A stretch of DNA of 38,200 nt from Hydrurus foetidus (taxonomy: Eukaryota), in contig UYFQ01000763.1 in NCBI GenBank assembly GCA_900617105.1, forward strand, positions 1 through 38,200, in the 5' to 3' direction. Shown one piece after another: positions 3,294 to 31,879 of this stretch; within the stretch, counting starts at the first letter, position 1, and each line of letters begins with the position of its first letter. The notes beneath the pieces are model-generated. The model saw nothing but the letters and a program-made list of their open reading frames with translations, had not been told where the DNA came from and did no database searches. The position numbers and the translations under genes are program-made.

Positions 3294-3510
3294 TGTGACC
3301 CGCACAGCTGTACAGCTGTACGGGTACCGGCGTACGTTCGGTTCGGATCGGGGACGATCCGAGCCATCCGATTCATGGCTTGCCTATCTCTGTGTTTATC
3401 TGTAAGCTAAACACATCTTTAGCCAATAGCACCAGCACCATAGCTGCCTTCCTCTTGCCCCCGCGCCCGTGTCCCATCAGTCCCACCGCCGAGCCCATAG
3501 TTAGGCCACA
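3294..3510 (+). repeat. 3' LTR of gypsy copy A (217 bp)
   Basis: Starts TGTGACC and ends GGCCACA (imperfect terminal inverted repeat). About 90% identical by eye to 34879-35095. Confidence 0.92.
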
Positions 3511-5623
3511 CCACGAATGGCTTTTGCGTATGTTAGCGGAGATTCGTCGGCCGCAAGGTTTAGGGATGACACAGCTGAGGCTGATGTTGCACTAGTTCTA
3601 CTTCGTGTCACCGGTGCTTCAGGTCGCGTTTTCAACAGCGGCATTTTCTGAGCGGGGAAAGGAATATCTGGTGCGATAACTTCTGTAACTGTCGCGACAC
3701 ACGGTGCATGGGTGCTGATAGGGCTAGGCTGCAGAGCAGCTTCTATGACCTGACTATCGGTCGAATCAGACACTGGTAGGGGTAGTGGCGGTACGCTCGT
3801 GGGCTCTGATGAAAGCACCCTCTGTTCCTCGGCCGTGTGCGCTATGCGATGTGGTAATAGGTCTGGCGTATTTTCAGTCGGAGTGATGTCGAGTGCAGGA
3901 ATAGGTTCATGTGTTGGGGCGATGTCGTTTCCTGTCGGTATTTCCCGAACGTCTTCAATTGAAGCTGTAGGTGACGCAGTGTGTGGACAGAACGATTGAA
4001 CGAATGCTGTCAGATCGGCGAGCATTGTGTGCGGCGGATCATTTAATTGTCGTAGGTGCGCTGTTTCTGGGTGCGCCGCTGCTAACGTTGATATTGCACC
4101 TGCCAGATCTTTGATTGCAGCGATTGCAATGTCGTGCGGTCCGATGTTTGGTAGCAATGGTTTGTCCAGTAACCACGCTAGTGTATCTGTAACTCGTATG
4201 GATTGGGTGTCTACTGCCCAAACGCTGAAGCAGTGATAATGCTGTTGTGCTGGTCCGAGATAAAAGCCGAGTACACCATGCGACGCCCATGTACCACGAG
4301 CAGTGGGCTTATCGTGGATGATGACCTTGGTTCCTGCGGGTTCTATCGGATGCGCTCGAAAGTCGAATTGGCGGCCATGAAGTCCTTCGTACGCAGAAAT
4401 GTTTGGATTTGGGCCGTAAGGTAGAAGGTGGTTCAGACAAAGTTCTGCTTGAGGAAGAAGTTTGTCCCACAAGGTCATCGGAAAATCATTTGCCACTGTG
4501 CATAGAGTCGAGATAAAATGGTTCTTAAACGTCCTGATGGCACGTTCCGCTTTCAGTGATCTGTGTTGACCTGGTGGGCAATATTGTATTTGAATGTTGT
4601 TCTTCGCTGCAAAGGTCTCTAGTGCTGTGGACGTTTCGTTGAAAAGTCTTTGGAACAGCGGTTTGTGGCCAGCTCTATCCCAGAAGTTCATTGTGTTCCT
4701 GTAAGCGTTCACGTAATTGGATTTGTGACGTGATGCGATGGGTTCACAATGGATATATCCATCTAGAACTGAGATAAATACGTATTCGGATCCGGATAAT
4801 GCCTTGATAGGAAATCTGCCCGTTAAATCCGAATGCGCCGTTTGTGACAGAGATAGCGTCTTTGTGAAGACGGTTCCGCGCGGTAGAGGTGGATTCTCAA
4901 CTTGATCTGCATCATCAGGGTGTTCGTCCTCCGAGGTAGAGTCGAGACCCTGACAGTGTTGATCGAGGTGTCCCCTGGCTGTTGCTGCTGTCAGGGAGAG
5001 GTATGAGGTAATCATGGTGCTTGTTAACCGTGGGTATGATGCCAGATAGCCTTTCGCACTGCGCGAAGTAGGGTGGACAGTACTGGGCTGCCGAGTGCAG
5101 TATGTATGAACGTTGCAAAAGCTGCATCAGTGTCACTGCGGAGTATGGCTGATGCTGATGTGGCGACTGTAGGTGTTCCGAGTTGGACGTTCCATAAGTG
5201 GTCGGACTTGTCTTTCCTGTGGTGCAGTACAGTGTGTCCATCCTTGGTGACGTGGACGTCCTCACTAGTGAAGGTGGCTATGCATCCATTGTTACACAGC
5301 TCTGAAATGCTGACGAGTGAAACGTCTAGAGTGGCGTCAGGAAATATATGCGCTGTAAGTGGAACAGATAGATTGGGCAACCACAAGTCTCCAGCCGACG
5401 TAGAGCAGATGGTGTCACCGTTAGGTAGTGCAACGCGGATGTTGTTGTCATGACGCACGTTACGTAGGTGTGCTGCGTCCGTTTCTCGGAGTAGAATGTG
5501 GGAAGAACCAGTGTCAGCACACGGTAGGTGGGGAGCAGAGTGGGCCGATGAAGGTAAGACTGTTGGATCTGAACGAGTTTGGTTTAAGTTACCGTCCAAA
5601 ATCTTACTTTCACGGCCTACTTG
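3511..5623 (-). pseudogene. pol: copia pol (protease-integrase), frameshifted and truncated
   Basis: In frame with gag after the TGA. A 1-nt frameshift near 5050 (VRK/GYLASYPRLT; compare IRAGYLSSWPRLT in the inner element) joins ORFs 5024-5599 and 3501-5015. Confidence 0.88.
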
Positions 5624-5626
5624 TCA
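5543..5626 (-). promoter_or_regulatory. putative stop-codon readthrough signal (UGA CAA GUA plus long 3' hairpin)
   Basis: In-frame TGA at 5624-5626, a 6-nt spacer, then arms 5594-5617 and 5543-5569 that are near-perfect reverse complements. Confidence 0.7.
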
Positions 5627-6673
5627 TAGTTTGTGTGTGGAGCCATTGGCTACGTCGGTGTGATTGTTGGCTGTTTTCATTGCCGCTGTGTATTCCGGTA
5701 AAGATGCCATTTGACGGCACTGTGCACTGCTGTGCGAGTTGTAACCGTGTTTGAAACAGTAAGGTCGATTGGATGAATTGCCTTGGTTGTTTGCTTTCAC
5801 CTTGTTAGGTAAGGCAGCTGAAATTCTTTTATCTATGTACGCTGCAAACGCCGCTGACTCGAAGTATGCTGGTGTTGTATCTGTTGTAGCCGATAATGAC
5901 GCTGCGTATCCGAGGTCGATGGGTACTGAAACAAAGTTCGGAGCTTGCTCGGTGATATGGTCGACGAGTTTCAAGAAGGTTTGCTGTGCGATATGTGGAT
6001 GAGCTGTCAAATATGACGTGGTTGCTGTTGTGTACGAGATGTTAGACCCAATGGCGGCCCGCAAGTATCGACATTTATCAACCTCGGAGAGTCCCTGGTT
6101 GGCGGAAGAGAACTGGACGTGGATCAAGCGATGCTGTGCTGCTAATTCAGAAAAGGTTCTCATGCCAATTTTGACGTTAAGCTCGGTGCGGAACGCATCG
6201 AAGTCGGATGCTAAGAAGGTTCCATAACGTTCCCGTAGGTGGTCTAGTAGCTGTTGACAAGATATTGCCACCAGGCCGAAGAAGGGGTCGCTGAGTTCGT
6301 TTCTGTCAGCGTCGGATAAATTGCTGATGATTGCATTTTTCAGGACTCGAAGTGCTTCCGAAATTGCCGAGTTGCGTCTCAAGGTGATTTCATATTGCTT
6401 TAGGTTGGCAGCTAATGCACCCAACTCTGGTGGAGGCGTGAAGATTATGGTCGGTCGATCTGCGATGATAATTTCCCCTTCGTTTTCAGGGTCATCGACT
6501 GCGTTTCCTGGAAGCATGGCCCTCTGTGCCTCTGAAACGCAAAATCCCAGAAGGCCGTTCGGCCCCATATTTTCCTGGCATCTACTGCCAAACGCTGTGT
6601 TGGTCGCTCTCAAAAAGGCTTGCATGCTCTGCCTTGTGCTTGCTTTGATGTCTGGTAGGCAGACTTCTGTCAT
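5624..6673 (-). CDS. gag: copia Gag (349 aa) with C-terminal C-X2-H-X4-H-X4-C knuckle
   Basis: Intact ORF starting 15 nt after the LTR. Shares DRNELSDP, HLRERYGT and YCFKHGYNSHSSAQC-type motifs with Gag at 19392-20528. Confidence 0.88.
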   Translation of the reverse strand: MTEVCLPDIKASTRQSMQAFLRATNTAFGSRCQENMGPNGLLGFCVSEAQRAMLPGNAVDDPENEGEIIIADRPTIIFTPPPELGALAANLKQYEITLRRNSAISEALRVLKNAIISNLSDADRNELSDPFFGLVAISCQQLLDHLRERYGTFLASDFDAFRTELNVKIGMRTFSELAAQHRLIHVQFSSANQGLSEVDKCRYLRAAIGSNISYTTATTSYLTAHPHIAQQTFLKLVDHITEQAPNFVSVPIDLGYAASLSATTDTTPAYFESAAFAAYIDKRISAALPNKVKANNQGNSSNRPYCFKHGYNSHSSAQCRQMASLPEYTAAMKTANNHTDVANGSTHKL

Positions 6674-6688
6674 TTGATCTCACTCAAC

Positions 6689-7430: not shown

Positions 7431-7845
7431 GAAGCGAGGGAGGATTCGCCGAAGTGGAATCTCCCGTTGTAGACAGATGGCCGACGAGCGATGGCCAAAG
7501 AATTATGGCCAGAGAGTTCTAGCCAATAAATGATGGCGAAGAAATGACGGCGCTCTCCACGGACAACGTCGGAAGTTCATTAACGCGAACTTGATGGCCT
7601 CGGCAATTCTCGAAGAAGAATTGCCGGCAGTTGAATGATCTCGAAGCGAGGGAGGATTCGCCGACGTAGAAGCTCCCGTTGTAATAGGTGACCAAGAAAT
7701 GATGGCGCTTTCCATAGACAACGTCGGAAATCCGTTAACGCGGGGGAAGTTGATGGCCTCGGTAATTCTCGAAGATGAATTGCCAGCAGTTGGATAATCT
7801 CGAGGCGAGGGAGGATTCGCCGAGTTGGAATCTCCCGCTGTAACT
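7431..7845. repeat. imperfect tandem repeat (two ~157-bp units plus a partial third)
   Basis: GCGAGGGAGGATTCGCCGA-type core near 7434, 7646 and 7805. Segment 7541-7664 aligns with 7696-7823. Confidence 0.75.
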
Positions 7846-8533
7846 GACGATGGCGATGAGGCGTGGACGAAATTGGAGAAAGGCTCTTCGCGGAGAAAAG
7901 TCCAGCGGAGAAAGGCTTTTCGCCTCGACAGCTGCTGCCAGATATCACAGAGTTCGACACAGTATTTATAGCATCAAATCTCGGGATTTTGAGATCTGTG
8001 GAGTTTGGTGCTGCTAAACTACTTTTCGACTAAAGAGTCGAGTCACAGATTCCAGCTATGACTACTCGTGGACGGATGTCACGATGTCGTGGGATTCTCT
8101 GGATGTAAATGATTGAATGTTGCGCTGTAGCAGCTGCTGTAGGCTGTAGGGTAGTTAGCCATTGCTACGTCCACACAGTGGAGATGTACGTACAGAACCT
8201 GTGTGTGCAAAGTAGACACCAAAGTAGACATCTCTACATGGTCACTGGCCGAGGGGTCTCCAGATTTCTTGTCTAAATCCCAGAATCCCAGATTTTCAAA
8301 TCCTAAATCTGGGGGTCTGGGTTTCTGGGAATAAACGGTGTCACCCAATGAAAAGAATTTCAAAAATATAACCGGGGATATCACAAAGCCTACGGCAGTT
8401 ACGGTCGGTTCGTTATGCAAAGCATACACCAAATTATTACAACCCAACTCCGAACTCTTGTTTCTTGCGAGTTGGAAGAGGGCCAATTACGACGACAAAT
8501 GTAGCGATCATCAACTTCCAGCTGTCATGTTCG

Positions 8534-9060
8534 ATGGGTCTCAGGAATTATTTGATATCCGCGCGGTTTCTCACGACTGTTGGCCACATTACAAATGTGT
8601 TTCTTCTCTTCGCAACGATCGAAAACAACATCCAGGTCATTCTTGGTGATGGCGCATCGACAGCTCAGCAATCGTTGGCCTATCGATCATCTATGGCAGC
8701 TTTAGTATTCAGCATTATTTGCTTCGCCATTGACTTCAGCGGATTATTTTTTGGGACTTCTCTATTTAATCCAATGGTAAGTCAAACTCTGTCCATTCCT
8801 CGACCAAAAATGCAATTGTTACATGAATCAACTTGAGGGGTGAAATCAATATAACGGGATCGTTTGCATATGAAATGCAGGTCAATTTGATACAAATACT
8901 CTTTCATTTTGTCGGGGGTGTCTTCCTCTCACTGACTTTGACGGAGAATTTTGGGTACCAAGCTTTGTGGCCGATAGTCATCACTACAAACATTCCTCCA
9001 GCTCTAACGGAAATTTCAATGCTAATCCGGATATATGTCCTAAAATCAACACCTTACTAG
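8534..9060 (+). CDS. TMEM107: Transmembrane protein 107 (ciliary transition-zone protein), 2 exons: 8534-8776 and 8881-9060, 140 aa
   Basis: GT-AG intron 8777-8880. The spliced protein MGLRNYLISARFLTTVGH...NNIQVIL...FSGLFFGTSLFN...PALTEI...VLKSTPY follows the TMEM107 pattern (RFLT..H, NIQ, G.S.FN, PA.TE, C-terminal K..P[FY]), with four hydrophobic segments. Confidence 0.88.
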
Positions 9061-9512
9061 CTAGCAGTGATCGTCTGTCATTTGATGTATCGAAATCGCA
9101 TTGTAGAATGCTCGCCTCCATATGAAGTGGGGAGATGAAAAGAACATATCCAGACCGGACATTCACACTTTCGATTTATTAATTGCGGACTCGATGACTT
9201 TCCTAGATGTAATATGCCTATTTGTGAGAAGAGGTCGCAATGCACGTGCTAGTCGAGATGCCATCCGTCATCTAGTCCGTCCTTCACTGCGAACAGGGGA
9301 GGGGGAGGGAGGGGTCCAGGATGTGTATCTGCCTGTCATATCACATACTCAACAAAGTGTCTGGCATAATCCACGATATGTGAGACAAATAGAATACGGT
9401 GGATGTTTTGCAAAATGTAATTTTGTTGATACAAATTCGTGAAGACAAACTTACAAGAGAAGGAAGACCAGATTTTTCGACTTAAAACCATCCGCCCCGA
9501 TGTTGCGGGAGT

Positions 9513-14844: not shown

Positions 14845-14958
14845 CAGCTCCTCCAAATGAAACTGAGTGAAAAAGGCACTCCAGAAAGTTCGGCAGAATG
14901 TTGTTGATATTGTCGTGGAAAAGCGGGAGATAATGGAGGCGAAATGAAGCCTAACCCG

Positions 14959-15230
14959 TGTTGTATATTACATACGTAGCACTGGTGTTGGTACGAGGTG
15001 TACGTGCACAGGCGACACTTCGTGGGTGATTTGTTACGTGCGCGACACTTTGAATGCGTGATCGAAAATACATATACTAGTTTGAAGTTGCGAACTGTAA
15101 ACTTTGTGGGCATGCTCGTGCGTCTTGCTCCACAAGTTTTAATAACAAGTCATTGATCACAGAGACCATTTTACGAGCCTTGAGAAGATTTCCGTGTAGC
15201 GAATCTTACAGAAATCCGAGTTTCTCAACA
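14959..15230 (+). repeat. 5' LTR of outer copia (272 bp)
   Basis: TGTTG...CAACA; duplicate at 25275-25546. Confidence 0.97.
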
Positions 15231-15240
15231 TATTAAAACT
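15231..15240 (+). promoter_or_regulatory. non-tRNA, self-complementary primer-binding site of outer copia
   Basis: TATTAAAACT is the exact reverse complement of AGTTTTAATA at 15135-15144 inside the LTR. Confidence 0.7.
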
Positions 15241-18200
15241 AGCAGGAGCCATTGTGATGCCTCCCAAACGCGCCGGTGAACCAAAGGAAGCGCCAGAATG
15301 CATTCTGAGAATTGGAAAGTACAACAATGTTGTAGCTTGGAACTTGGAAATGCGATCTGTTGTGGGAACCCTGTATGGGTCCACAGCCAACTTCCTCACC
15401 GATAACCTGAGATACGTCCCGCCCTTTCCTACGGAAGAGGACTATATTCCTGTCAACCCAGCACTCGCGGAAGGAGTGGCTCCTGCTTCCATGCCAGCTG
15501 CGCTACTTGCAAAGCTACGGGAGGACTGCTTCACTGGGAGACGCAAAGAGATTGCGCAGCAACGCAAAGACGAGCAGAAGATTTGGTCACTCATGTGGAC
15601 ACGCATGTCTCCTGCCTCGCAGAGCAAAGTCCAGGAGGAGCCTGGATACGCCGCCGCGCTATTGGCGCGTGACTGCGTACTGCTGTGGGAGTACATACGG
15701 CGTACTCACCTGACGCATATTTACGGGGAGGGAGACCCTATGCTTGCCCTGAACATTCAGGACCAGGAACAAAGGTACAATGCTATCAAACAGGGGGACA
15801 AAGAGTATGTGTCCAACTTCAAGCTGCAGTTCGACGCTCAAGTCCAGGCGTGCAGGGGTGCTGGGATGGCTGAAATCACAGAACCGAAACGTGCCCTAGA
15901 CTTCATATACAAACTAGACCCAAAGAGATTTAGCAAGATGGTCGCGTTCATGAGGAACAATGCACTATGCATGGAGGGCGAGGCCTTCCCACAGACCCTG
16001 GCGGCCGCGTGCCGTATAGCATCCGGCTGGGTAAACGAAGATACCGGCGGGCCCCAGATCCCAGGATCCGAAACCCACTCTGCTTTTGCCACTGAGGAAA
16101 CGAACTTGGTAACGAAGTCTAAGGACCCTGAGAAAGGCAAACGAAGTACGACCAAGAACGACACAACTGCCAAGAAGAAATCTTCCACGGATGTGGAGTG
16201 CTTCGTGTGCGGCGAAATCGGTCACTACGCTAGAGATTGTCCGCTGAAGAAAGGGTCTGCACGCGCTCTCATGGCAGCTACAAGCGCTGTGAACAACAAA
16301 CGAGACTCATCCGACGACGATGAGGTTGCCTATATCACCTCCGCGGAAATGGTGCTGTTCTCAAGAGACGACGTTCTGTTAGACAGTCAGGCGTCCGTCA
16401 ATGTTTTCTGCAACGAGAAGCTGCTCAAGAATATGAGAAAGTCTGAGAAGCGAGTCGTGCTAAACGGCGTCCAAGCCAAAGCCGACGGTGTGATCATAGA
16501 GCTCGAAGGAGATTTCGGTGTGGTTGGAAAAGTATACTTCAGTAAAGACTCGACGGCTAACATCCTGTCCTACGCTGTTATGGTTGATCAAGGCAACGAC
16601 GTCAGCTATGACAAAATCAACGATCGTTTCCTGTTGAAGCCACTCGGAAGTACAAACGTGTATTCCTTCAGTAGGAAGCAAGTAAGCGGAAGTGAAGGTC
16701 GGTTTTACTGCTGCAATGTTACTTCGATGATGGAAGATCGCACGATCAGATATCCTGTAGCAGAACATGCACTCATCGAAACAACGGCTGAAAACATGCA
16801 GAGGTACTCTAAGAGAGAAATTGATTGCGCCAATCGGGCTAGGAAGTTACTGAGCAAAATGGGATTCCCGCCGGTTATTCAAGCGATGAACATCGTGGGC
16901 CGAGGAAGGAAGTTCGATGTGACGGCTCGAGATTTCATAGTGGCGGATGCTATATATGGGAAGGATATTGCTTCTATGAAAGGAAGAACAACTAAGAGTG
17001 CTACGAAGATTGCTGACATTACAATTGGAGCAGCTATCGTACAACAGGAGCAAATACTTTCAATCGACATTATGTACGTAGACGGAGTGGCATCGCTGAT
17101 CGGTCTTGCCAGTCCGTTGGATCTAACCATGGCGGTATCGCTGCTGTCATTCGACACCCTGCAGAGTTCGAGATCAGCAGTAGTTGTAAAGAAGGGGTTG
17201 GATGGATTTATCTCCACTTTAGCATCAAGGAGTTTTGTCACGAGATTGATAATGAGTGATGGGGAGGGAGCCATCGGTGCTATCAAAGATGATCTGAACA
17301 ACCTTGGTATAGAGGTTGACGTCAGCGGGGCTGGCGGTCACGTGGCTAGGATCGAAAGAAGGATCCGAACGGTGAAAGAAAGAGTAAGAGCTTTCATATC
17401 ACATGAACTGCCGTTCACCCTCACTGCTCTGGGCGTAGCCATGCTGGTTCTATTCTGCGTGTCGAGAATTAATTATCAGACATCTGAGTCAAGACATGGT
17501 GAGGATTGTCCGCGCGTAGTATTTACCGGGAGACAAGTTGACGCTAGACTGGATTACAGGATCGGATTCGGAGAATACGCACAGTGTACTGTGCCCAACA
17601 CTGATGCGACGATGGCAGCGAGAACCGAGGATTGCGTAGCTATGCTGCCGACTGGAAATAGAACTGGTTCTGTGAAGATGATGTCAATCAGCACTGGCAG
17701 GCTGGTAACTCGCGACCAGTTCACGATACTTCCTATGCCATCATCAGTTATTGACAAGCTGAACGATATGGCTGTTGCCGAAGGAAGGAAGGTCGTCGTT
17801 AATAGAAACATGGTGTATGGTATACAGAGTGGATTACGAAAAGCAGATGATCCTACATACATGAGATCGTTTGAAGTCGTTACGGTAGACCCGGCGGTTA
17901 CGGCCAACAGTACTACAACAGAGGACGCGTATGAGTTTCCTCAGTTTCCATCGATAGATCAGCAAACGCTTGGGGACGACGTCGGCGTAGGACGAGAGGC
18001 GGAAGCGGAGATGCGGAATACAGACTATTATGACATGCCAGATTTAGATGTGGGACCACTGATTGAGTTTGAACCATATGTCGAATCCAACGCCAACCCT
18101 GATGCGTCAGTGCCAGTGACGCCACCGAGATCTGTTCTCACTCCTGTGTACACGAGATATAAAGCAGCTGCACAGCGGAGCCCACCACTGAATAGAGATC

Positions 18201-19223
18201 TAATGCACTACTACAACGCGAACGATGCTGTGCTGACGAGTGCACTTGCAGATACGGGAGTACGCAACGAGCATGTTATGAACATCTCAGTGAAGGAAGC
18301 ATTGAGAAGTAGGGGTGCGGAGGCCGAAAGGGTAATACTTATGGAGCTTTCCCAGATGATAGACAAAAAAGTATGGACGCCTGTACATATCGGAGTGCTG
18401 TCGGGTACGGAAAAACGCGGGATTATCCGTTCTCAAATGTTCCTGAAGGAAAAATACTTACCGACGGGGGTGTTCGAAAAGCTGAAGGCGCGTCTGGTTG
18501 CTGGCGGGAATCAGCAGGATAAGGACTTGTATGACGACTTGTCGTCTCCCACGGTCTCTACTAGCGCGGTGATGACCGTGTTCGCGATAGCGGCATATGA
18601 GAAGAGAAATGTGTCGGTTGTAGATATCGGAGGAGCTTTCCTGAATGCGACTATGGACACAGGAATTACAGTGTATATGAGACTAGACAAGACCATGTCG
18701 CTCATGGTGTGTAAGATCGATAAAGGATATGCAGATTACGTGGATGACAAGGGATGTGTCGTTGTCCGACTTGATAAAGCGCTCTACGGGTGTGTGGAAT
18801 CGGCAGCATTATGGTACGAGAACCTGTCAGAAGCGTTTAAGACGTGTGGATATGAGAAGAATAAGTACGAGGTATGCGTGTACAATAAACGGAACGAGAA
18901 GGGAATTCAGTGTACTGTGGCCGTGCACGTGGACGACCTTATCATATCCAGTGTAGATGGGGGGATGATTGATGCACTGTGTGACAACCTTAGGAGAAGA
19001 TATGGAATCATTACACGCGCTGATGGGCCTGTTGTGAATTATCTCGGTATGGTCTTTGACCTTACCGTACCTGGGGAAGTAAGAATGACTATGCGCGGAT
19101 ATGTGGAGGATACTATAGCGTATGCTGGTGTACCGGGTACGGCCAAGAGTCCGGCCACGGACGGCCTGTTTGATACTCGAGATGAGGCGGTTGCAGCTGC
19201 AGAGAATGAAAGCTTGTGGTTTC

Positions 19224-19381
19224 TGTTCATGTATGTACAATCATTCGATCTTGACCTCGATCTGCACTTCAATCTGTCTCTGTGCTTTCATTCTCGCTTC
19301 CTTCATAAGTTAATCTAAACCAACGTAAACTTGCCCATCAGTTTACTGAACGTTCTTCAGGTTGCTTCCACTGGTTCAACA
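19224..19381 (+). repeat. 5' LTR of inner copia (158 bp)
   Basis: TGTT...AACA; duplicate at 24364-24525. Confidence 0.96.
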
Positions 19382-19392
19382 GTTTAGATTAA
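19382..19392 (+). promoter_or_regulatory. non-tRNA, self-complementary primer-binding site of inner copia
   Basis: GTTTAGATTAA is the exact reverse complement of TTAATCTAAAC at 19310-19320 inside the LTR. Confidence 0.75.
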
Positions 19393-20528
19393 TGACAGAC
19401 ACAGTCCCGTTCATTACACTCACAAAAGAAAATTTTGCCGAATTTCAAAGGCAAGTCTATGACTATGCGTCAAGCATTTGCCTAGACAACGGTTTTCTAA
19501 CTCATCGGCATGGGCTGCTCTCTTTCGTTGTCACAAACGAAATATGGCAAAATTTGCCTGGAAACGCAGTTCAAGACGACGCAGTGCCGCCCAATATCAT
19601 TCTTCGCCCACGAGATGTTCTCACTCCTCCCGAAATTCCAGCTGAGAACGCCAATGCATGGCGAGTATTTGAATACAGAACAAAAGAATTCGACAAGGTA
19701 GCAGTCGCAGTCCTCCTCCTTACAAGACGCCTCAAGGATGCTTTACCAGCATCAGATCGCAACGAGCTTTCGGATCCGATATTGGGCATGGGCCAATTGA
19801 CCGCATTGCAACTCATGACCCACCTACGCACACAGTATGGTACATTAACATCTGAAGACTTCAAAGCTTTGCACGCACAGTTGACACACAAGCTGGACTC
19901 TGCAACTAACTTCACTGGGTTCGCTGCCGACCAGCGGTTCATTTTCCAACAATTAGCTGCATATGGTCAGCCAATTCCAGAACTCCAGAAATGTGATTTT
20001 CTCCGCAATGGAACTTGCCATCTGTTTCCAGTGCAAAAAGCCATCGATTCCTACCTTACCGCTCATCCGCACACGGCCAACCAAACTTTCAATAACTTGG
20101 TTGCCCACATCACACTGCATTCTCCAAACTTTTCCCAGTCCACTGGAGACATGGGATACACTGCCGCGGCAACCCACATCAATCCAGTTCCAACGTCTGA
20201 AATCTCCTCAACAGTTGCAACACTTCTACTCTCGCCTACCTTCCTCACTGCGTTGGCAACAGCTGCCGCAGCTGCAGCCATCTCTCCTCCACCACGGTCT
20301 CCACGCCCGTCCCGGGCAGGCCGTGGAGGGCGTGGTCAACTCAAAACACCTAACCCATCCACAACAGACTCACAACGTCCCTACTGTTACGCCCATGGAT
20401 ACAATGCTCACTCAAGTGCTGACTGCTACAAAATGCGCTATAGCCCTCTTGCCAAAAACTACACAGATGAGGCACGATTGGCCACCAGTCACACCTCAGT
20501 CGCTGGCGGATCAATTATGCGCTTGTGA
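19392..20528 (+). CDS. gag: copia Gag (378 aa) with C-X2-H-X4-H-X4-C knuckle
   Basis: ATG 10 nt after the LTR (MTDTVP, compare MTEVCL in element 1). Contains YCYAHGYNAHSSADC and ends at an in-frame TGA. Confidence 0.88.
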   Translation: MTDTVPFITLTKENFAEFQRQVYDYASSICLDNGFLTHRHGLLSFVVTNEIWQNLPGNAVQDDAVPPNIILRPRDVLTPPEIPAENANAWRVFEYRTKEFDKVAVAVLLLTRRLKDALPASDRNELSDPILGMGQLTALQLMTHLRTQYGTLTSEDFKALHAQLTHKLDSATNFTGFAADQRFIFQQLAAYGQPIPELQKCDFLRNGTCHLFPVQKAIDSYLTAHPHTANQTFNNLVAHITLHSPNFSQSTGDMGYTAAATHINPVPTSEISSTVATLLLSPTFLTALATAAAAAAISPPPRSPRPSRAGRGGRGQLKTPNPSTTDSQRPYCYAHGYNAHSSADCYKMRYSPLAKNYTDEARLATSHTSVAGGSIMRL

Positions 20529-20610
20529 CGGCTAGGCTTGAGAAGTGATGTGCCTGATGCCACTGTAACTAACACAGTCGATTGCAATCCACCACATCTT
20601 TCTTTCGCCT
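20526..20610 (+). promoter_or_regulatory. putative stop-codon readthrough signal (UGA CGG CUA plus long 3' hairpin)
   Basis: In-frame TGA at 20526-20528. Hairpin 20534-20610 with stacked helices AGGC/GCCT, GAGAAG/TTTCTT, GATGTG/CACATC and ACTGT/ACAGT. Confidence 0.7.
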
Positions 20611-23600
20611 TTTCAGCACCTAAGCTCGCATGCAGCGACACAGGATCCACAAACCTTTTAGTAAGACAATCTGATGCCTCTGCTGTCATCATCGATCCTC
20701 ACCTACAGCCTATTTCAGTAACTCTTCCCAATGGCTCCACCATTAGCTCAAGTTTCAGTGGGACGTTGCTCTTCCCAAATCTTCCTTACCCTATAAATGC
20801 CTACATTTTCCCCGACAAAGTCCTTCATACTTCGCTATTAAGTGTCAGTGAACTTTGTAATGTCGGATGCCTCGCCACATTTACCGACACGCAGTTTCAC
20901 GTTACATACAACAACTCAACAGTCCTACACGGCATCAAAGCAACGTCCGACACACTATGGACGGCCCAACTACCGACACAATCTGCAGCTGCATCGACGC
21001 ACACCACTTCATCTCACGCGGCACGCCTTACCGCAGACGCTGAGTTTGTTTTATTCGTGCACGCTTCCCTAGGCAGCCCGGTCTACTCTACCTTCTTGCG
21101 CGCCATTCGAGCTGGTTACTTATCGTCATGGCCCCGACTCACAACAAACATCGTCTTAGCCCATCCACCACACACAATCGCGACAGCCAAAGGCCACTTT
21201 AATCAATTGCGACAAGGTTTGGACTCTACCAAGACAGACGCAGTCTGTCCAACGACTGATAATGACGATAGTCCGGAGTTACCTCTTACAGCTGAGTCTG
21301 CTAACCATACTTACGTCAAGATGGTTCGTCTCCCACACACCGTCAGCTCCGATTTAACTGGAAAGTTTCCTGTTCAGGCTGACAGTGGCGCACAGTACAT
21401 CCTCATTTCGGAAATGGATGGATATATTCATGCGGAACCCTTAGCATCGCGCCATCACACAGCTTACATCTCAAGCTTTACGCGAACAATCTCTTTCTTC
21501 ACCGCCCTAGGCCGTATCCCCTTCTTCCTACGACTAGATAATGAAACGTCCGCACCACTCGATGTGTTCATGAAGCGGCAAAGCATCAAGATGCAATACT
21601 GTCCACCGGGTATGCATCGATCGAATAGAGCAGAAAGGAGCATCCAAACATTCAAGAATCATGCAATAGCAACACTCTGCACAACCTCAAAAGACTTTCC
21701 TCTCACGTTATGGGATCGTCTATTACCTCAAATCGAACTCTGTTTAAACCATTTACACCCTTATAAACCAAACCCAACGATCTCAGCATACGCCGGTCTG
21801 CACGGTGGAGCTCATGACTTTAGAGCCAATCCGATCGGACCAGCCGGTGCTAAAATTCTCATACATGATAAACCCAGCACTCGGGGATCGTGGGCTCCGC
21901 ATGGAGTTGCAGGTTTCTATCTTGGTCCTGCTCCACAACATTACAGATGCTTCACAGTGTGGTCATCATCAACAAATGCAGTGCGGATCACCGACACACT
22001 CGTCTGGTTTCTCGACAATCTACAGCTGCCGAATCCCTCTGTTCATGATCTACTTCTTGCCGCAATTCATGATCTCACCACCGCCATCAATACCATCACA
22101 AGTGCCCACCCCGCTCTCCATCACCATCGTCAGCTCAGCAATATTCCAAATCTCACTCAACAACTTCATGACATCGCATCTTTATACAATCCTCCTCCGA
22201 ACGTACCTATATTGCCGATCAATGCTGTCGCTGATCCTCCCGATGCCACGGAACAGAGGGTGCACATCCCTCAGGCACCACTTTTGACCCATCTCACTTT
22301 ACCGGCAGTCTCCCAACACCCACTTACACCCACTCCCACTACGGAACAGAGGGTACCTGTTACTGATAGTGTGCCCTCCCCTCCATCGAAGTCTCAGAGT
22401 TCCAACATCGACAATCTCCCAAATGTTCCTCTCCTACCTTCCCAAAACCCACCCACAGTACCAAAACCACCGTCCCCGCCAGTAACTCGACAGCACACTG
22501 CGCGTCTGCGCGCTCATGCTGCACTTAATTTGGCTGCAGATGGCAGCCCTCTTACATACTCTAAAGCAAAAGCTGGGCCTGATGCTGCACGGTGGTTACA
22601 AGCCGAGGCGGAAGAGTTTGATCGCCTGATTACGTCACACACGATAAAACCCATCCATCAGTGCGATCAACCACATGATCGCCGTCGGGATACTACCTAC
22701 TTCAATCCGCAAACAAAACAAAAGATAGATTCTGGTGGTTCCACTACCTATCGCATTCGTGGCACAGCTGGAGGAGACAAAATCAATTACACTGGACCTA
22801 CATCAGCGCAAACAGCTGCCATGCCAGTCGTCAAGCTTCTGCTTCATTCCGTCGTCTCCGAGCACAAACAATGGATGACAATTGATATCAAAGATTATTA
22901 CCTCAACACTCCCCTACTGCGTCCTGAATTCATCCGGATCCCATGTCGCATGATACCCGACACTACAATCGCTACCCACAGTCTCATACCGTATGTCCAT
23001 CAAAATGCGATTCTTTTTGAAGTCAATAAGGGTATGTACGGCCTGCCCCAGGCAGGACTATTGACACAGCAACGCTTAATTGCCCATCTCGCCAACCATG
23101 GCTACCATGAGACATCCACTCCCTGTCTGTTTAGGCACACCTCCAACGGCACTGCTTTCACTCTCGTGATCGATGACTTTGGAATAAAATATTCGTCTAA
23201 GGCTGGAGCTGACTATCTTATTCGCACCCTTCAACTTCTTTACGTTATCACCATCAATTGGACCGGGTCCACATACATCGGATTTACGATTGTTTTCAAC
23301 AATACATCCCGCCAAGTTTCCCTCACAATGCCCGGCTACATCAGCAAAGTATTAGAGCGATTTGCTCCGCACCTTTGTCTCGGTGCTGCCTCTCCAGCCG
23401 TCTACATTCCTCCATCATATGGTGCCCCTACACAAAACGTTACTTCCGACACCTCACCACTGTTACCGCCATTAGCCATCAAAAGACTTCAGGAGCAAGT
23501 CGGTTGCCTGCTTTACTATGCCAGAGGAGTTGATGCTACCATACTTCCAGCAGTCAACCACATCGCCTCCCTACAATCTCAACCTACCGACATCGTTGCT

Positions 23601-24258
23601 GCTGCTATGGATCGTCTTCTTCAGTATTGTGCTCGCTACCCCGACAACGCACTCGTTTTCACGGCCTGCGATATGCGACTCTTTATGCGCTTCATACCTT
23701 TCCCGTCCGAAGGCACGCTCCGTCGCAGGTGGCATTTTCTACCTTGGCAACAACAACCAACCAACAACTATCAACGGTCCCTGTCTAACTCTTAGTACCA
23801 TCATTCCTGTAGTCGTATCATCTGTTGCTGAAGCAGAGTATGCAGCAGTGTTTATGAATGCCAAAGAGGGGGCCTCTATCCGAGCTATTCTCGACAGTCT
23901 CGGCTACCCACAACCTACAACCGACATTCTGTGTGACAACATGTGCGCTGTTGGTCTCGCCTCCGATACTGTCACTCCCAAGAAAACAAAATCGATCGAT
24001 ATGCAGTTTCACTGGATAAGAGATAGAGTTCGTCAGAAACAATTCAGTGTCACTTGGCGTCAAGGAGCGCACAACTTGGCTGACTTCTTCACGAAGGCCC
24101 TCCCAGTGCATCTTCATCGCACCCTTATGCCTTTTCTCGTCAGCATCCCGCCAACACCTAGCACAAAGTTTCAAAGCTCACAAGCTCGTCGCTCATGTGC
24201 GTGGAAAATGCTTCGTCACTATGCGAGAAATCATGACTGCAAATTGCTATCTGAGTAA
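20529..24258 (+). pseudogene. pol: copia Pol (PR-IN-RT-RNase H), frameshifted at the start of RNase H
   Basis: SDTGST, SDLTGKFP/RLDNETS/RAERSIQTFKNH, YRIRGTAGGDKI, TIDIKDYYL, KGMYGLPQAG, LVIDDFG, SSVAEAEY, CDN and NLADFFTK. The frame changes near 23688, where the expected x-S-D before ASYLS is missing. Confidence 0.92.
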
Positions 24259-24363
24259 TATAACTAGTAATTTTGTTAAAGCACTTCACTTTGTTGATTA
24301 CGCTCAAAATTCCTTAGTATGGCTTATTCTTCATTCATTGGCACATTACAGCTTGAGAGGGTG

Positions 24364-24525
24364 TGTTCATGTATGTACATACAATCATCCGATCTTGACC
24401 TCGATCTGCACTTCAATCTGTCTCTGTGCTTTCATTCTCGCTTCCTTCATAAGTTAATCTAAACCAACGTAAACTTGCCCATCAGTTTACTGAACGTTCT
24501 TCAGGTTGCTTCCACTGGTTCAACA
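24364..24525 (+). repeat. 3' LTR of inner copia (162 bp)
   Basis: Direct repeat of 19224-19381, followed by TSD GTTTC. Confidence 0.96.
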
Positions 24526-25274
24526 GTTTCATAGTGTAGTTGCCAAACTGAGTTATCTAGCAAAACGTGCAAAGCCAGAGTGCCTGACCGCTGTTGCATA
24601 TCTGGCTACGAGAGTCACCAAGTGTACTGAGGATGACTTAGAGAAGTTGAAGCGTGTGCTGAGATATGTAGCGAATACTCGTGAAAAAGGGGTTGTGCTC
24701 AGACCAGGGGTGATGGGAATATGCGTGAGAGTATACGTGGATGCGGCGTACGGGGTGCACAGTGATGGGAAGTCACATTCGGGGAGTTGCATTGTCATAG
24801 GAGATGTTGGATCAGTGCACTGTAAATCGAGTAAACAGAGCATAGTTACTAAGTCCAGTACAGAAGCTGAGCTGGTAGCGTTATCAGACTCAGCCAATCA
24901 AGGCTTATACTTGCGCAATTTCCTGAAAGAGCAAGGACACTCGATGGGACCAGTAATCATATATCAAGACAACACGTCGTGCATGGCGCTTGTTGCTAGA
25001 GGGAGATCTGGTGCAGAGAGGACAAGGCATATCGGAATCAGATATTTCTGGTTACAAGAGAGAATCGAAACTGGAGAAGCGGTTGTGGAGTACAAGGGTA
25101 CAAAGGAGATGTATGCTAACATTCTCACTAAACATCTGCAGGGCTCTCAATTCATTTACGAAAGGGATTCCCTAACGGGGTGGATTTGAGGAGAGATATT
25201 TTGCCTGACGAGTAGGCCGCAATATAAATGATATGCTATGCAAACTGTTTGAATACTAGCCAGTACTAGGGGTG

Positions 25275-25546
25275 TGTTGTATATTACATACGTAGCACTG
25301 GTGTTGGTACGAGGTGTACGTGCACAGGCGACACTTCGTGGGTGATTTGTTACGTGCGCGACACTTTGAATGCGTGATCGAAAATACATATACTAGTTTG
25401 AAGTTGCGAACTGTAAACTTTGTGGGCATGCTCGTGCGTCTTGCTCCACAAGTTTTAATAACAAGTCATTGATCACAGAGACCATTTTACGAGCCTTGAG
25501 AAGATTTCCGTGTAGCGAATCTTACAGAAATCCAAGTTTCTCAACA
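25275..25546 (+). repeat. 3' LTR of outer copia (272 bp)
   Basis: Direct repeat of 14959-15230, preceded by AGGGGTG and followed by TSD ACCCG. Confidence 0.97.
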
Positions 25547-26279: not shown

Positions 26280-28808
26280 CTATGGGGAGGTTAAGGTTTT
26301 AGTTTGACCCAAGGTCTTCCCCCTGAGGGCGTACCATTGCCGTTTAAAATAATTCAGTCGGGAGAAAATAGCGCGTTTAATGCGAGACCCCCACGTCCTC
26401 ACTATGTTAGTCGTGATTTCGAATAACAGCGCTTGACCGCCTCTGCTTTGAAGAAACTGCTTGCAAATCATAGATATTTGTTCGTCACCCATTTTATCTC
26501 CTTTTTTGACGTAGGACACGGTAGCCCCGGTGTCTTTCGACATACTGCCATCTGCCGCACATGCTAGGGGAGAGTTCATGTTGGCGTCCATGCTGGCCCT
26601 GGAGGCGTCTTTTAGGAACCGTCTGAGCCTCTTCCACCTAGGCAGGTACAGGCCGCTGTCCCTATCCAGGCGCAGTATGAGGGAGCGAAACACCGCCTTG
26701 GTCTTGCCTGACGCCACCTCCTGTCCTGCAGCAGACCCGAGTCGCTTGTCCGTGTCGTCATGCAGATTCACATACGCTCTCTCCACTACCGCTGCTGCTG
26801 CTGCAGTGTATGAGATGGTGATGGGTTTCACAGTCCTGGCCTGCTTATCCACGCCGCTGAAGTCGGACAGCACTTTGCGCAGAACGTACGGGTACACCAC
26901 TTCCAGTAGACTGAAGTTCGGATCAGCGGTCAGCGCCATGCCCTCCAGAGATCCGATGGCACGCACATTATTCAAGAAGTAAGGAGGAACGGTAAAGCTG
27001 AAACGAGTCGCTACGGCGAATAGCGCGGAAATGATTTCGTCGAATTTTACTCGGGGTATCGGTGTGGCAACATCTTCTTCCTCGTCCTCACCAAAAGCAG
27101 AGGAAGAAGAAGAAGTAGTGGAGTCTCCAGAACGTTTCTTGCTAGTGGTGCTCATTTCTAGGAATGCTAGAAAAGCAATGAAGACGCTCAAGAGAGGGTT
27201 CCTTAGGAACTTTCTCACGCCCTTGGACAGTCGTACTAAAAATGCTTCTGGCAGAATCTCCGTAGGAACAATTCTTCCGACCGCAACAGCAAAGTCTAGA
27301 GACACTTTGTCCTTTTCTTTCTGTGCGAATGTTTGCATTTGTTCGTTGTGTCTGGGAGAGAAGTCAAGGACTTGTTCTGCTACTTCGGAGAGAGCGATTT
27401 CGAATGCCTTGAGATCCACTTGAAGTGCGTCACTGGGCATGAGCATCAGTGAGTCGAACTCCCTCGCAAGTGCGCTGTAATTCCTCTCGATCAAATGCAC
27501 CACGCTGCACACTAGCGCTTCTCTGACAGATATGGGCACAGTCGCCACTAGTCCAAAGTCCAGGTAGGCGAGTTTGCCTCCGGGTCCTTTCAAGAGGTTC
27601 CCCCCATGGGGATCCGCATGCAGTACCCCGGTCTCTAATATCTGACTCAGAGTGCACTGTATTCCAAGCTGCACCAATGGGAGGTCTGACGCAGACACAG
27701 TTGCGTCCTTTCTGATCAGTTTTTCTCCTTCCAGCCAAGTCATCGTTAGAACTCTTTCAGAGCACAGTGTAGGGAGTAGTTTTGGCACCAGAATGCCTGG
27801 GGATGGAAGAGTTTCGGACGCAGTTCCATTTTCAGAGTACAAAGCAGAGAACTTAAGAAGGTTATTCGCTTCGTTGATGTAGTCCAGTTCCTCGAACAGT
27901 CTGGATGCGTACTCGTCCACTGCTCCTACTCCGTCAGATCGCAATATCCCAGTCTCCGTCAAAAATATTGCGCCCCACCGGGCCAGGAGAAAATCAGCAG
28001 CAACTTGCTCTCGTAATTTTGGCCTCTGAATTTTCACAGCAATGTCAATCCCGTTGACGCGCGCTCTGTATACCTGTCCCAGAGATGCTGCAGCTATCGG
28101 CAGGGCGGAGAGGGTGCTCAACAGCTGGTCCACCATGTCGTCACTCTCCCCAGCAGCTGTGAGATCCTGCCTAATAATCTCTCTAGCCTCCTCCGTAGAA
28201 AATGTCGAAGGTATCGCATCCTGCAACAACTGAAGCTGACTGATGCCTTCGAGTCCGATCAGGTCTTGTCTTGATGATAGCGCTTGGCCTAGTTTGATAA
28301 AAGTTGGACCCATTCGAATCATCGAATCTCTAACAGCGCCAGCTAGCTTCACCTTGCTTTTGTTCAACGCTGTTTTATCTAATAATGTGCGACTAGAAAC
28401 ACTTTCTTCCATAAAGACATCCATTCCAGCGACGAATATTGTCCCCACTTCACCCAGTATCTGTACTAGTCTACCAATCACCAAAGATGGATTGCGCGTA
28501 AAATATGAGGATATATCGCTTGAGTTGTAAACAACTGATAGCATCTTGTGTGGCTCAGCTCTCGAGTGTCTATCAGTCATGACGTGAGTATCATCTGCGG
28601 GAGAGAAAGACACCGCAGAAGGGGAGAGAGTCGCTCCATCATTTGCAGGTCCTACTGTCACCTCATTATTGGTCAGCGTTCTGGCACATCTTAATGGTTC
28701 ACTTTGCATAGATGGTAGAAAATGTCTGTATCCGTGAGCAACAAAAAGGATGTGCGCATAGATAATCGTTCTGAAGCAAGAATGGAATTTCATTTCGTAG
28801 GTGGGCAT
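26280..28808 (-). CDS. ABC1/UbiB-family atypical protein kinase (ABC1K), probably plastid-targeted
   Basis: 842-aa uninterrupted ORF with GPTFIKLGQ, PIAAASLGQVYRA, AVKIQRP, EELDYINEANN, LHADPHGGN and YLDFGLV. The true start could be the second Met (MKFHS). Confidence 0.93.
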   Translation of the reverse strand: MPTYEMKFHSCFRTIIYAHILFVAHGYRHFLPSMQSEPLRCARTLTNNEVTVGPANDGATLSPSAVSFSPADDTHVMTDRHSRAEPHKMLSVVYNSSDISSYFTRNPSLVIGRLVQILGEVGTIFVAGMDVFMEESVSSRTLLDKTALNKSKVKLAGAVRDSMIRMGPTFIKLGQALSSRQDLIGLEGISQLQLLQDAIPSTFSTEEAREIIRQDLTAAGESDDMVDQLLSTLSALPIAAASLGQVYRARVNGIDIAVKIQRPKLREQVAADFLLARWGAIFLTETGILRSDGVGAVDEYASRLFEELDYINEANNLLKFSALYSENGTASETLPSPGILVPKLLPTLCSERVLTMTWLEGEKLIRKDATVSASDLPLVQLGIQCTLSQILETGVLHADPHGGNLLKGPGGKLAYLDFGLVATVPISVREALVCSVVHLIERNYSALAREFDSLMLMPSDALQVDLKAFEIALSEVAEQVLDFSPRHNEQMQTFAQKEKDKVSLDFAVAVGRIVPTEILPEAFLVRLSKGVRKFLRNPLLSVFIAFLAFLEMSTTSKKRSGDSTTSSSSSAFGEDEEEDVATPIPRVKFDEIISALFAVATRFSFTVPPYFLNNVRAIGSLEGMALTADPNFSLLEVVYPYVLRKVLSDFSGVDKQARTVKPITISYTAAAAAVVERAYVNLHDDTDKRLGSAAGQEVASGKTKAVFRSLILRLDRDSGLYLPRWKRLRRFLKDASRASMDANMNSPLACAADGSMSKDTGATVSYVKKGDKMGDEQISMICKQFLQSRGGQALLFEITTNIVRTWGSRIKRAIFSRLNYFKRQWYALRGKTLGQTKTLTSP

Positions 28809-29064
28809 GCTATTTGCGGCGTCGAATTGCCACTCCCCGCTCTCACAATGGTGCGGCTGAGTAGCTGATGCCTCTTTGTACGTGCCCTGTCTCCGATATC
28901 ACTGTTATTAAGAGTTGAGTTGCAAGATATTCAGCGAACTTTGATTCTTCACAAGATCCGGGAGCCGACAACCAGGCCACTCAATATGGCGTGCCAAACT
29001 GTTCAAAATTATTTTTTCCCGGATTTTGAAAAAATTTCCCGGATTTTCATCTCGGTCAATTAGA

Positions 29065-29468
29065 GGGTGCGTTCGGTAAATTTCGTGGAAAAACCTTCAT
29101 TTTTTTCAAAGTTGAATATGACGGGGCGATTTCAACTTCTGAAAACTGCGATTTCCTCTGGAAACGGTTTACCGAACACACACCAGAAATTTGGGGGGTC
29201 CGAAATTTTTGAGGGGTCAAAAGTCGGACAACGGACAAACCACCGCACAAATTTTTTGGGGGGCCTAAAAGCTTCATCTCAAAACTTGCAGGTTTCAGGA
29301 TTCACCTAAAACATGAATCGTTTCAAACCACAACTTTCCGTGATTTCTCACGCTGCAACAAATTTACCGAACGCTCATTTCAGTAAAAAAACTTCAATCG
29401 TCGGAAATGAAAGATTTTCGCCGAAAATCGTCGGAAATACAGGTTTTCGAAGTTTACCGAACGCACCC
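29065..29468. mobile_element. Tourist/Harbinger-like MITE (404 bp)
   Basis: 16-bp TIR GGGTGCGTTCGGTAAA / TTTACCGAACGCACCC, 3-bp flanking duplication AGA, internal TTTACCGAAC copies. Confidence 0.78.
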
Positions 29469-29772
29469 AGAGTGTTTGCGATTTCCGTTTTTTTGAAAAA
29501 TTCGTCCCCTTCGACTTTGAGGCCGGTCCTTACGGTGTCGGATTTCAGGGAAAGTTAGGCCCTTCCTAGTGGAGTACAAATTACAAAATACAAAATTTGA
29601 AAATTTTTGAACTTTTATTTTTGTACTTTGTACCTCTACGGTTGTAGTGGTTGACAAAATACGAAAGCTCTGTTTTGTATCTTTTTTAAACCTCACGTTT
29701 GTAGTGGATGTCATTTTACAAAACACAAATTTCAACCTCCAAATTTTTTTGCCACCACCTCAATTCTGCAAG

Positions 29773-30527
29773 ATGGTCAAAAACAAGGTTATGCAAGCCA
29801 AATCCAAGTCCGTGAAGAAACTTCTCGAGAAACTCAAAGCTCCCCAGTTGAAGGCGTTGCAGTATCTTCTTGCTGCAAATGCCTATGTCTCAATTATTGA
29901 GGGATCTGCTCGGAGAAAGAAGACGCAGAAAGAAGACATGGAAATGTGAGTTGTTTAAACTCTGATTATAGCATTTTAACCTCTCAAGAACTCATCAATT
30001 TGATTGTCACTTGATAGATTATACCATGGTGATGGCGGCGACCAGCTTGGTCAAGTCAACCAACTGTTGAATAGGAATAATCGCTATAAAGTCTTATGGG
30101 ACGGAGATAAATTTGGTTCTGGGTTTGGGATTTTTAGCGGTGTTACCAAAAATTCCGTCAAGGAAATCATCAATATGCCGACCACTTGAGTTCATATGCA
30201 GAAACACTTGAGTTCATTCTGGGATCTAATGGAGAACCTGTACCTGAACCAGTGTATCAATCCTCCATTCCAATGCATCAGCCTACCATTGTGCCATCAG
30301 CATCTACTCACCTTTTCAGTAAGAAACCATCTCTACCTGTTGGACTCAAATGCTCTGCCCCCAGCGAGCTTCGTAAAGTTAAATAGAAGATTGCAGCTCA
30401 GGCCCCAGTGAACGCACTAGCAAACACCGTCATTGGCAGCAGCGGAAGCAGCAGCAGCAGAATGAGCAGCGGGAGCAGCAAAAGGGACAGCAACCAAGAG
30501 AAATCCAGCAGTAGCAGCAGTAGCAGT

Positions 30528-30567
<40 letters not shown>

Positions 30568-30614
30568 AGGAAGGCAAGAGGTTAGTGAAAAAGAGAACTA
30601 CTCATAGTGTTTAA
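29773..30614 (+). pseudogene. second (accessory) ORF of the Harbinger element, disrupted
   Basis: ATG at 29773 (MVKNKVMQAK, basic), plausible GT-AG intron 29946-30017, then stops/frameshifts and a Ser-rich, basic tail. The position fits the Harbinger DNA-binding partner gene, but no Myb/SANT motif is recognisable. Confidence 0.4.
30507..30563 (+). repeat. (AGC/AGT)n trinucleotide tract
   Basis: Directly visible. Confidence 0.9.
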
Positions 30615-30894
30615 TTGATTTATAACTTGCATTGTTACAATTGGTTTTTGTATTGTGTACTCCACTACGATCGAGAGGTACAAAAATCAGGATACAAAAA
30701 AAGGAAAAATAAATATGCTTCGAAAGTATGAGAATATAAGTTGAAACTTGTTAATATAATTATGTGAATAGATTTAACGATAAATAAAGTTTGAAATTTT
30801 GTATGTTTATTTTGTACTCCACTACAATCGAACGGATACAAAATAAGAATGAATAAATACAATACATGATAGACAAGGACTTAAAAACATTAAC

Positions 30895-31879
30895 CTAGAG
30901 CCATTTGACGGAAGATGAATCTTTGGAAGGGCATATCAGTGAGGTCCACGATGGATACCCTCCATCAACAAGAATCCAGGCACCTTTGTAGTTCTCCTCT
31001 ATACCCCTTTCATTATACAGAGAGAACACATTGTCAGCAAGATAATTACTTCTCTGAATGTCGGTAATGAAGTCATCAAATCGGACTGTAGTAGTATCGT
31101 TCCATCGTCCCGGGAAGCCAACAGTTGTTGCAAGTATCTGCCGGCGGTGATTGACAACAAGTTGATATGCACGAGTTATATGAGAATCCTTTCCCCAAGA
31201 TTCTGATTCTTTAAGCGCGCATAGCACTTCTCCATTATAATGTGAGTAACATCTGCAGACCCAATACATCCATCGAATGCCGCCGCCTTAAACTCTGACA
31301 TATGATCTCTGATTTCTTCTTCAGTTTCTGAGCGTTTCACCTACATGGGATAGGAAACTCCCTGCAAGCTTTGACAAACAAATTGAAGAAAACGCGATGT
31401 GACTCCTCAGATACCCCTGTAGCCTCGGCGATATCGTCAAAAGTCCACCCTCTTCCTAGATAGCGCAAAGCACCCAGAATGAATAAATCCAATGGAATCC
31501 CAGGTTGGTGACATGCATTCCGCCGTTCGTAAGTGGGAAACCATTTTTGCTCTCTCGCCAGTTTCACTAGACCTTGAAACTTGGCGTCGGGCATCCTGAA
31601 TCGTCGCCTGAACTGGGCGTATTGACTTTTATTTTTGAACCAACCGACTCCAGATACATATCTTCGGTACCATTCCGACTTCACAGCTTGGAATGGATCA
31701 TACCCTTGATAGTTCCTTGCAGCATATGGTCTTTTTTCTTTAACAACTACTTGTTTCTGTTCTTCTTTACCCTCTTCATCCTCCTCGTCATCATTTCTAT
31801 CTCGTTTCCTTCTATACGCAGCCCATTTATCAAATACGACGATTCCTTCATCATCAAAGATACTAGTGAACCTCTCCAT
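30895..31879 (-). pseudogene. PIF/Harbinger DDE transposase, frameshifted and C-terminally truncated
   Basis: FRRRFRM, ALRYLGRGWTFDDI, GCIGSADVTH (third frame, about 31240-31270), FPGRWND and WILVDGGYP. Two frameshifts and a TAG near 31341; the last catalytic motif (R..VE..FG) is absent. Confidence 0.88.

Follow-up and report, generated by a model that had tools for sequence, protein, structure and literature searches.

The window, a stretch of 38,200 nt from contig UYFQ01000763.1 of Hydrurus foetidus, carries two related retroelements, here called B and C, in which gag is separated from pol by a single in-frame TGA. B lies on the plus strand and C on the minus strand, among other mobile DNA and an ABC1 kinase ORF. 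Positions preceded by a plus sign are counted from the nucleotide following the stop.

Element B:
19224..19381, plus strand: 5' LTR, with TG...CA ends; GTTTC forms a 5-bp target-site duplication at the borders of the element
19392..20528, plus strand: gag, ATG at 19392, 378 aa, C-terminus ...GSIMRL
20385-20432, plus strand: Gag knuckle, C-x2-H-x4-H-x4-C, 48 residues upstream of the Gag end
20526..20528, plus strand: gag/pol stop, TGA, in frame
20529..20534, plus strand: spacer from stop to stem, 6 nt
20535..20609, plus strand: predicted extended hairpin, starting at GG (+7/+8)
20529..24258, plus strand: pol, with protease, integrase and RT as far as 23795
24364..24525, plus strand: 3' LTR, with a purine tract just upstream

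Element C:
5624..6673, minus strand: gag, C-terminus ...GSTHKL, TGA at 5626-5624
5759-5717, minus strand: Gag knuckle, C-x2-H-x4-H-x4-C
5543..5617, minus strand: predicted hairpin, +7 to +81, z -5.09
3501..5623, minus strand: pol, in the frame of gag at the stop, with a frameshift near 5100, truncated where the RT begins

Other features:
1-3468: gypsy-type element with chromodomain
14958-25546: single-ORF copia element with canonical CCHC knuckle, LTRs of 273 nt that are 100% identical, and a duplication of 5 bp
26280-28898, minus strand: ABC1 atypical kinase ORF, 872 codons, uninterrupted; the nearest atlas clusters are from eukaryotic algae
28985-34006: DNA-transposon-like arrangement, a pair of perfect inverted repeats of 62 nt separated by 4.9 kb and, inside them, further inverted and direct repeats

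The two LTRs of element B are 98% identical, and their TG...CA ends and the 5-bp duplication are those of Ty1/copia elements, as are the motif order in pol (protease, integrase, RT, RNase H) and the RVT_2-type RT. The match to PF07727 (E 3.5e-5) is under the curated cut-off here, and PF07727 is annotated on most relatives. Past the TGA, pol is open in frame for 1088 codons; the RNase H part lies in a different frame (23476-24258), and the copy is hence broken. The Gag ATG is found only 11 nt past the 5' LTR (19381-19392), and no usual primer-binding site is evident in that interval. The knuckle of the lineage to which B and C belong reads C-x2-H-x4-H-x4-C, not CCHC, and is missed by Pfam. An assignment to CoDi-I, a clade with diatom hosts, was suggested in the earlier note and is possible; named relatives come from the chrysophytes Spumella vulgaris and Dinobryon divergens, with RT 56% identical; the RT motifs presumably resemble those of diatom elements. 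A chromodomain following the integrase is a trait of CoDi-A (PMC2774666), and no match to a Chromo domain was obtained on either window Pol at E<=0.01.

Element B is inserted in the RT of the single-ORF copia element, to which it is unrelated, so that two gag-pol strategies are nested. A 125-nt repeat found near the end of the gypsy-type element recurs 31.6 kb away (34879-35054), before another gag-like ORF. The ABC1 kinase neighbour indicates a eukaryotic alga, and not a narrower host group.

B and C share 35% identity in Gag and 47% in the protease region. Their Gags end in the same alignment column, each at a single TGA with pol in frame beyond it, and neither linker has an in-frame ATG upstream of the protease active site, as the earlier note had claimed on both counts.

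Conservation and context of the gag/pol stop

The stop is a property of the family. In an alignment of 19 rows, made of the 18 Gag homologues (among 25) having a complete C-terminus plus the Gag of element C, all rows terminate in one column. Among 33 stored proteins with the Gag knuckle, 28 stop 44-48 residues past the knuckle, four (P0199, P0305, P0331, P0388) are fused to the protease, and one is cut short. The fused proteins carry W or R, and no Cys, at or beside the stop position; these residues would correspond to codons one base away from TGA. Looking from the other side, only one of 73 Pol relatives of at least 1100 aa has a recognisable knuckle, and a second is a gene model joining gag to pol without a knuckle.

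Nucleotide sequences were gathered in two metagenome scans. The first scan used a Pol peptide as key and yielded 34 loci. Three without junction and four duplicates were set aside, and an in-frame stop is present in 25 of the remaining 27. L021 has no stop and a short linker, and is sister of a TGA element in the tree; in L012/L013 pol is in the -1 frame. For L025 and L029, whose pol is broken further on, the end of the gag ORF was taken manually as the junction; in L002 gag is broken. The second scan served as a held-out set, with predictions fixed beforehand: 16 loci, 8 of them too short, leaving 8. Those belonging to the lineage have the in-frame stop (7/7) and GG at +7/+8 (7/7); L038 has the in-frame stop and a frameshift further on, and L050, placed on a long branch, is a distant element with a single ORF. 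Overall, and leaving the window elements apart, an in-frame stop splits gag and pol in 32 of 35 distinct related loci holding the junction. A sense codon in most intact copies, named in the earlier note as evidence against its own reading, is thus not what the family has, with 32/35 loci stopped and 4/33 knuckle proteins fused. Several related loci have 98-100% identical LTRs. No relative was found in scans of viral_contigs.

Contigs L035-L050, 16 in number, carry eukaryotic copia elements in prokaryotic species-representative MAGs, mostly as short stand-alone contigs, and likely represent binning contamination. One of them, L045, is a MAG contig of 162 kb on which a gag-TAG-pol element (4423-9339), its RT truncated and no LTR repeat present, lies between genes of bacterial type (DUF445, phosphate transporter, sigma-70 region 4, TPR); the element may be either a chimeric assembly or a real insertion.

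For the nucleotide context, 34 junctions including those of both window elements were considered, and 5 close kin were dropped to obtain 29 lineages. The median identity of their Pol N-terminal pieces is 27%, a figure somewhat lowered by frameshifted rows. The stop is UGA in 24 lineages, UAG in 5 and UAA in none. GG occupies +7/+8 in 27 of the 29, while Gly accounts for 18/1044 codons elsewhere in the linker, and a purine is found at +2 in 28/29. Of the 10 Arg codons at +1, 8 are CGG, whereas in pol the figure is 41 out of 364 (p 9e-7), which indicates that constraint acts on nucleotides. G follows the stop in 5/5 UAG and 5/24 UGA lineages (Fisher p 0.002, uncorrected for kinship); two UAG lineages are sisters, so that UAG-G occurs at 4 separate places in the tree. 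In the held-out set purines occupy +2/+3 in 4/7, and UAG is more frequent (3/7) than predicted.

The wider sampling reshapes the signal proposed earlier. The post-stop motifs quoted for the two window elements (TGA CGG CTA GGC in B and TGA CAA GTA GGC in C, followed in both by nnn nnA AGT) are present as described, but the nnA AGT part is lost in the wider family. UGA-CGG, which the earlier note took for the conserved signal, does not hold as such: CGG is found in 8 of the 24 UGA lineages, 14 of which have C at +1, UAG-G is used as well, and CGG is not fixed even among close copies of B. The CAR-YYA signal of Sireviruses (TMV type I) is rejected, as no full match was found among the contexts listed; C has CAA-GTA, and the nearest sequence, L031, has CAA-CTT.

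Close copies of B were looked for in contigs from four public DNA or unlabelled runs (7-16 per run) belonging to 3 studies, one of which is possibly the source of the window itself. No variant is listed at the stop, at +1 (C) or at +4..+8. Positions +2/+3 are variable, and CAT exceeds CGG by depth. Variation affects 5/32 of the basal paired positions and 18/45 of the others (p 0.025). A predicted pair is lost through four of the five basal variants, no two-sided change occurs among them, and the middle helix is not preserved. Both the CGG and the full five-helix model of the earlier note were therefore overstated.

A predicted stem anchored to the stop

The hairpin of B, with the helices listed in the earlier note, was reproduced by folding. 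Compared with 200 shuffles it has a z of -2.39 (4/200 as good), and that of C -5.09 (0/200). The B hairpin is only moderate, because 9 of 144 same-length windows along the element fold lower, and a single copy proves little by itself. Three basal pairs (+7/+81, +8/+80 and +9/+79) are identical in the two hairpins. Above them registers differ and only 34/87 positions match, hence compensation cannot be read pair by pair; the compensatory change between the arms of B and C proposed earlier is absent in its strict two-sided form. Rfam covariance models gave 0 matches at E<=1 over 20300-20900.

Support for the stem comes from the lineages taken together. Folds of +1..+130 have z < -1.7 in 23/28 junctions, and 3 of the 5 remaining close the stem from +7 given longer sequence. 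The mean probability of pairing at least 40 nt downstream, calculated over 29 lineages, is 0.10-0.20 before the stop, 0.30-0.39 at the stop and 0.36 at +6; it is 0.92, 0.89, 0.89 and 0.80 at +7..+10, falls to 0.46 at +11, and is 0.94 at +14. The predicted profile is that of a basal helix of 4 bp, separated by a small internal loop from a second helix. The outermost helix begins exactly at +7 in 14/29 lineages. The partner of +8 lies between +69 and +179 in 28/29, and positions +9 to +18 show various types of pair; partners and pair types were taken from each sequence's own fold, and are an illustration, not a test.

MAFFT alignments of such divergent junctions misplace the 3' arm, and covariation in alignments was consequently replaced by an arm-swap test, in which the match of each lineage's own +4..+24 arm to its own +45..+175 region is compared with row and column expectation. 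Own arms are 4.3 kcal/mol better, in 26/29 lineages (p 3e-7), and none of 7 control offsets shows an excess (p 0.10-0.99). Because the arm window was picked after the first folds, p values obtained in-sample err on the optimistic side. In the held-out set own arms average -18.7 versus -13.9 (one misplaced junction included), and the own arm is the best overall in only 1/6 of the correctly placed junctions. When codons were redrawn keeping the protein, 12/27 junctions had p<=0.05 (B borderline at 0.053, C 0.003), hence Gly/Pro content accounts for part of the pairing. In the trio L004/L007/L014 the stem arms are invariant and the loop diverges; L029, L023 and L043 fit the stem poorly. Taken as a whole, folding exceeds the controls in a manner specific both for arm and position, contrary to one outcome that the earlier note had set against itself. 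A fixed 75-nt hairpin is not retained; what is kept is the stop, a 6-nt spacer, and a basal stem initiated by GG.

L012 (452-700) and L013 (3911-4160), the records of which are 99% identical, stand apart. Gag ends at TAG, pol is in the -1 frame, a G/A/U-run heptamer is found immediately 5' of the stop, and a stem spanning ~185 nt is predicted from 5-6 nt past the stop. The two records may reflect a switch to -1 frameshifting, or a broken cassette one base short. The site may resemble that of a dianthovirus.

Proposed readthrough, its alternatives and known counterparts

The layout, the identity of the stop, its conserved context and the arm-specific complementarity are observed. They are best explained by structure-stimulated readthrough of the gag/pol stop, which would determine how much Gag is made relative to Gag-Pol, a reading to which we assign a probability of roughly 0.8. 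In the model proposed, termination at the stop, yielding Gag, would be the outcome for most ribosomes; in a small fraction, with the stem placed at the mRNA entry, a near-cognate amino acid would be incorporated instead, and the resulting Gag-Pol would co-assemble into the particle. The position of the 3' arm would be set by what the protein linker can accommodate, whereas the loop would be free to vary. The core of this reading, proposed in the earlier note, survives the sequence-based checks among those named there as able to refute it: the stop is kept, the predicted stem is specific, and neither a splice donor nor an AUG is conserved that would give an alternative route to Pol.

Another reading is that UGA-C or UAG-G suffices as local context for readthrough, and that the stem, though real, has a role in RNA packaging, dimerisation or protection from NMD. 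The stop context is itself conserved, and about 1% readthrough is observed in alphaviruses without structure (PMC3159437). Against this, the 5' edge of the stem is tied to the stop at +7 while the 3' arm floats from +69 to +179, as expected for a signal positioned on the ribosome, and we regard a purely local signal as improbable. Only slightly less probable is that Pol is made separately, whether by reinitiation, through transcription from an internal promoter, or by splicing that takes the stop out of the RNA. A weak promoter resides in the Tca2 junction (PMC2194720), the ratio is governed by splicing in copia of plants and of Drosophila (PMC5580714), and an in-frame ATG precedes the protease in 6 of 27 linkers scored, L018, whose linker was cut short in the scoring, being a seventh case; the protease-site pattern missed two loci. 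Yet 21 linkers as scored, those of both window elements included, contain none. Donor-like motifs before the stop number 8/29, against 7/29 in a control stretch; no conserved splice donor was found before the stop across the 29 lineages, and no donor-like motif at all in the window elements. Spliced or internal expression of pol, listed in the earlier note as a way to disprove readthrough, thus finds neither a conserved donor nor a conserved AUG at the sequence level. Separate synthesis of Pol, moreover, would not need the kept frame, the avoidance of UAA or the coupling of the stop to +1.

Hairpin-guided A-to-I editing, by which a Trp codon would replace UGA or UAG in some of the RNA, would account for the absence of UAA, which is two edits away from UGG while UGA and UAG are one, and for the W that some of the fused proteins have where the stop would be. 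The stop lies, however, outside the predicted stem (long-range pairing 0.30-0.39, versus 0.9 at +7), and to our knowledge ADAR-type editors are not known in ochrophytes; editing is very unlikely. The chance that the stops are decay mutations, or that UGA is a sense codon in the host, is close to nil. Both window copies are broken elsewhere, but lineages 27% identical have the stop at one position, and several loci have 98-100% identical LTRs, which leads us to reject decay. UGA as sense codon is rejected because four long window ORFs contain 33 TGG and 0 TGA, and TGA ends another window ORF. Selenocysteine is discarded too, on account of the UAG members of the family and of the fused forms without Cys at the position.

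Structure-stimulated readthrough has several counterparts. Type II signals (alphaviruses, tobraviruses, furoviruses) have UGA, CGG enriched at +1, and an extended stem whose long loop is poorly conserved, as here (PMC3159437). Their spacer is of 7-12 nt in RNA viruses and of 6 nt here, where GG is fixed at +7/+8 and CGG is found in a third of UGA lineages. Window copy B has UGA-CGG, and its extended 3' stem is a predicted one, supported across lineages by the swap test. Type III signals (gammaretroviruses, tombusviruses) combine UAG-G with a 3' structure, as the UAG lineages do here (PMC3159437, PMC3542737); the window copies have UGA, and the UAG-G trait belongs to those 5 lineages only. The different frequency of G after UAG and UGA matches the published division, in which UGA-CGG/CUA defines type II and UAG-G type III (PMC3159437; PMC3542737). 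MuLV has the same gag-stop-pol order (PMC8310308; PMC5580714), and readthrough sets its Gag:Gag-Pol ratio (PMC3159437, PMC3542737), but the signal is a compact pseudoknot after an 8-nt spacer, whereas here one stem type serves both UGA and UAG members. The spacing is that of the SEPN1 redefinition element, a stem 6 nt past UGA which stimulates readthrough; SEPN1 is, however, a cellular selenoprotein gene with a SECIS, and its stem is compact, of 16 bp (PMC3159437).

Among retrotransposons, the earlier note had looked to Sireviruses for readthrough in copia. In SIRE1, readthrough concerns pol-env (PMC2829016). A nearer copia parallel is found in Candida albicans: Tca2 (pCal) likewise has gag and pol in frame, separated by one UGA, with a predicted 3' structure (PMC2194720). 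Tca2 is also the main reservation about readthrough here: its Pol comes from full-length RNA, yet its UGA junction failed in a yeast reporter, the 300-nt junction giving in S. cerevisiae background readthrough only, and a weak internal promoter (PMC2194720). Tca2 is a single fungal element with a MuLV-like predicted pseudoknot, whereas here a simple extended stem, predicted family-wide and supported by comparison of lineages, follows a 6-nt spacer. In Tj1, Tosmo and Tcry1 of fission yeasts an in-frame UGA-C is conserved at the gag/pol boundary, and in Tj1 it is essential; they are Ty3/gypsy elements, and no downstream stem is described for them in the parts of that article used here (PMC10085805). 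In CoDi elements of diatoms gag and pol are separated by at most one stop or frameshift (Maumus 2009, PMC2806351); the word readthrough does not occur in the main text of that article, and neither a mechanism nor a signal for readthrough is described in the parts used here. No readthrough signal in algal copia was found in the literature covered; the survey of gag-pol recoding by Gao et al. 2003 or the supplement of PMC2806351 may list stop-separated elements of this lineage. The gag-UGA-pol layout was thus already known from Tca2 and Tj1, while the family-wide cassette with its 6-nt spacer and GG stem was not found in print. It is a known strategy in a new place, with a geometry of its own.

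Tentatively, and with well under even odds, a single cassette maintained across an old and widespread algal copia lineage may be regarded as a general recoding platform, in which UGA-C and UAG-G are repeatedly exchanged, and -1 frameshifting is adopted in L012/L013, over the same stem. Were it so, the series of cassettes would be a natural test set for the action of a 3' stem on the terminating ribosome. How such stems drive eukaryotic readthrough is still an open question (PMC3159437), and natural examples come mostly from few virus genera. The lineage adds about 30 independent versions of one signal, with fixed spacer, fixed GG, free loop and natural UGA/UAG switches, in algal hosts usable for reporters. 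Gene callers split or mis-splice ORFs of this kind, and a stop between gag and pol should not be read as the sign of a dead copy. Readthrough, if true, would explain the Gag:Pol ratio in a major retrotransposon group of these algae.
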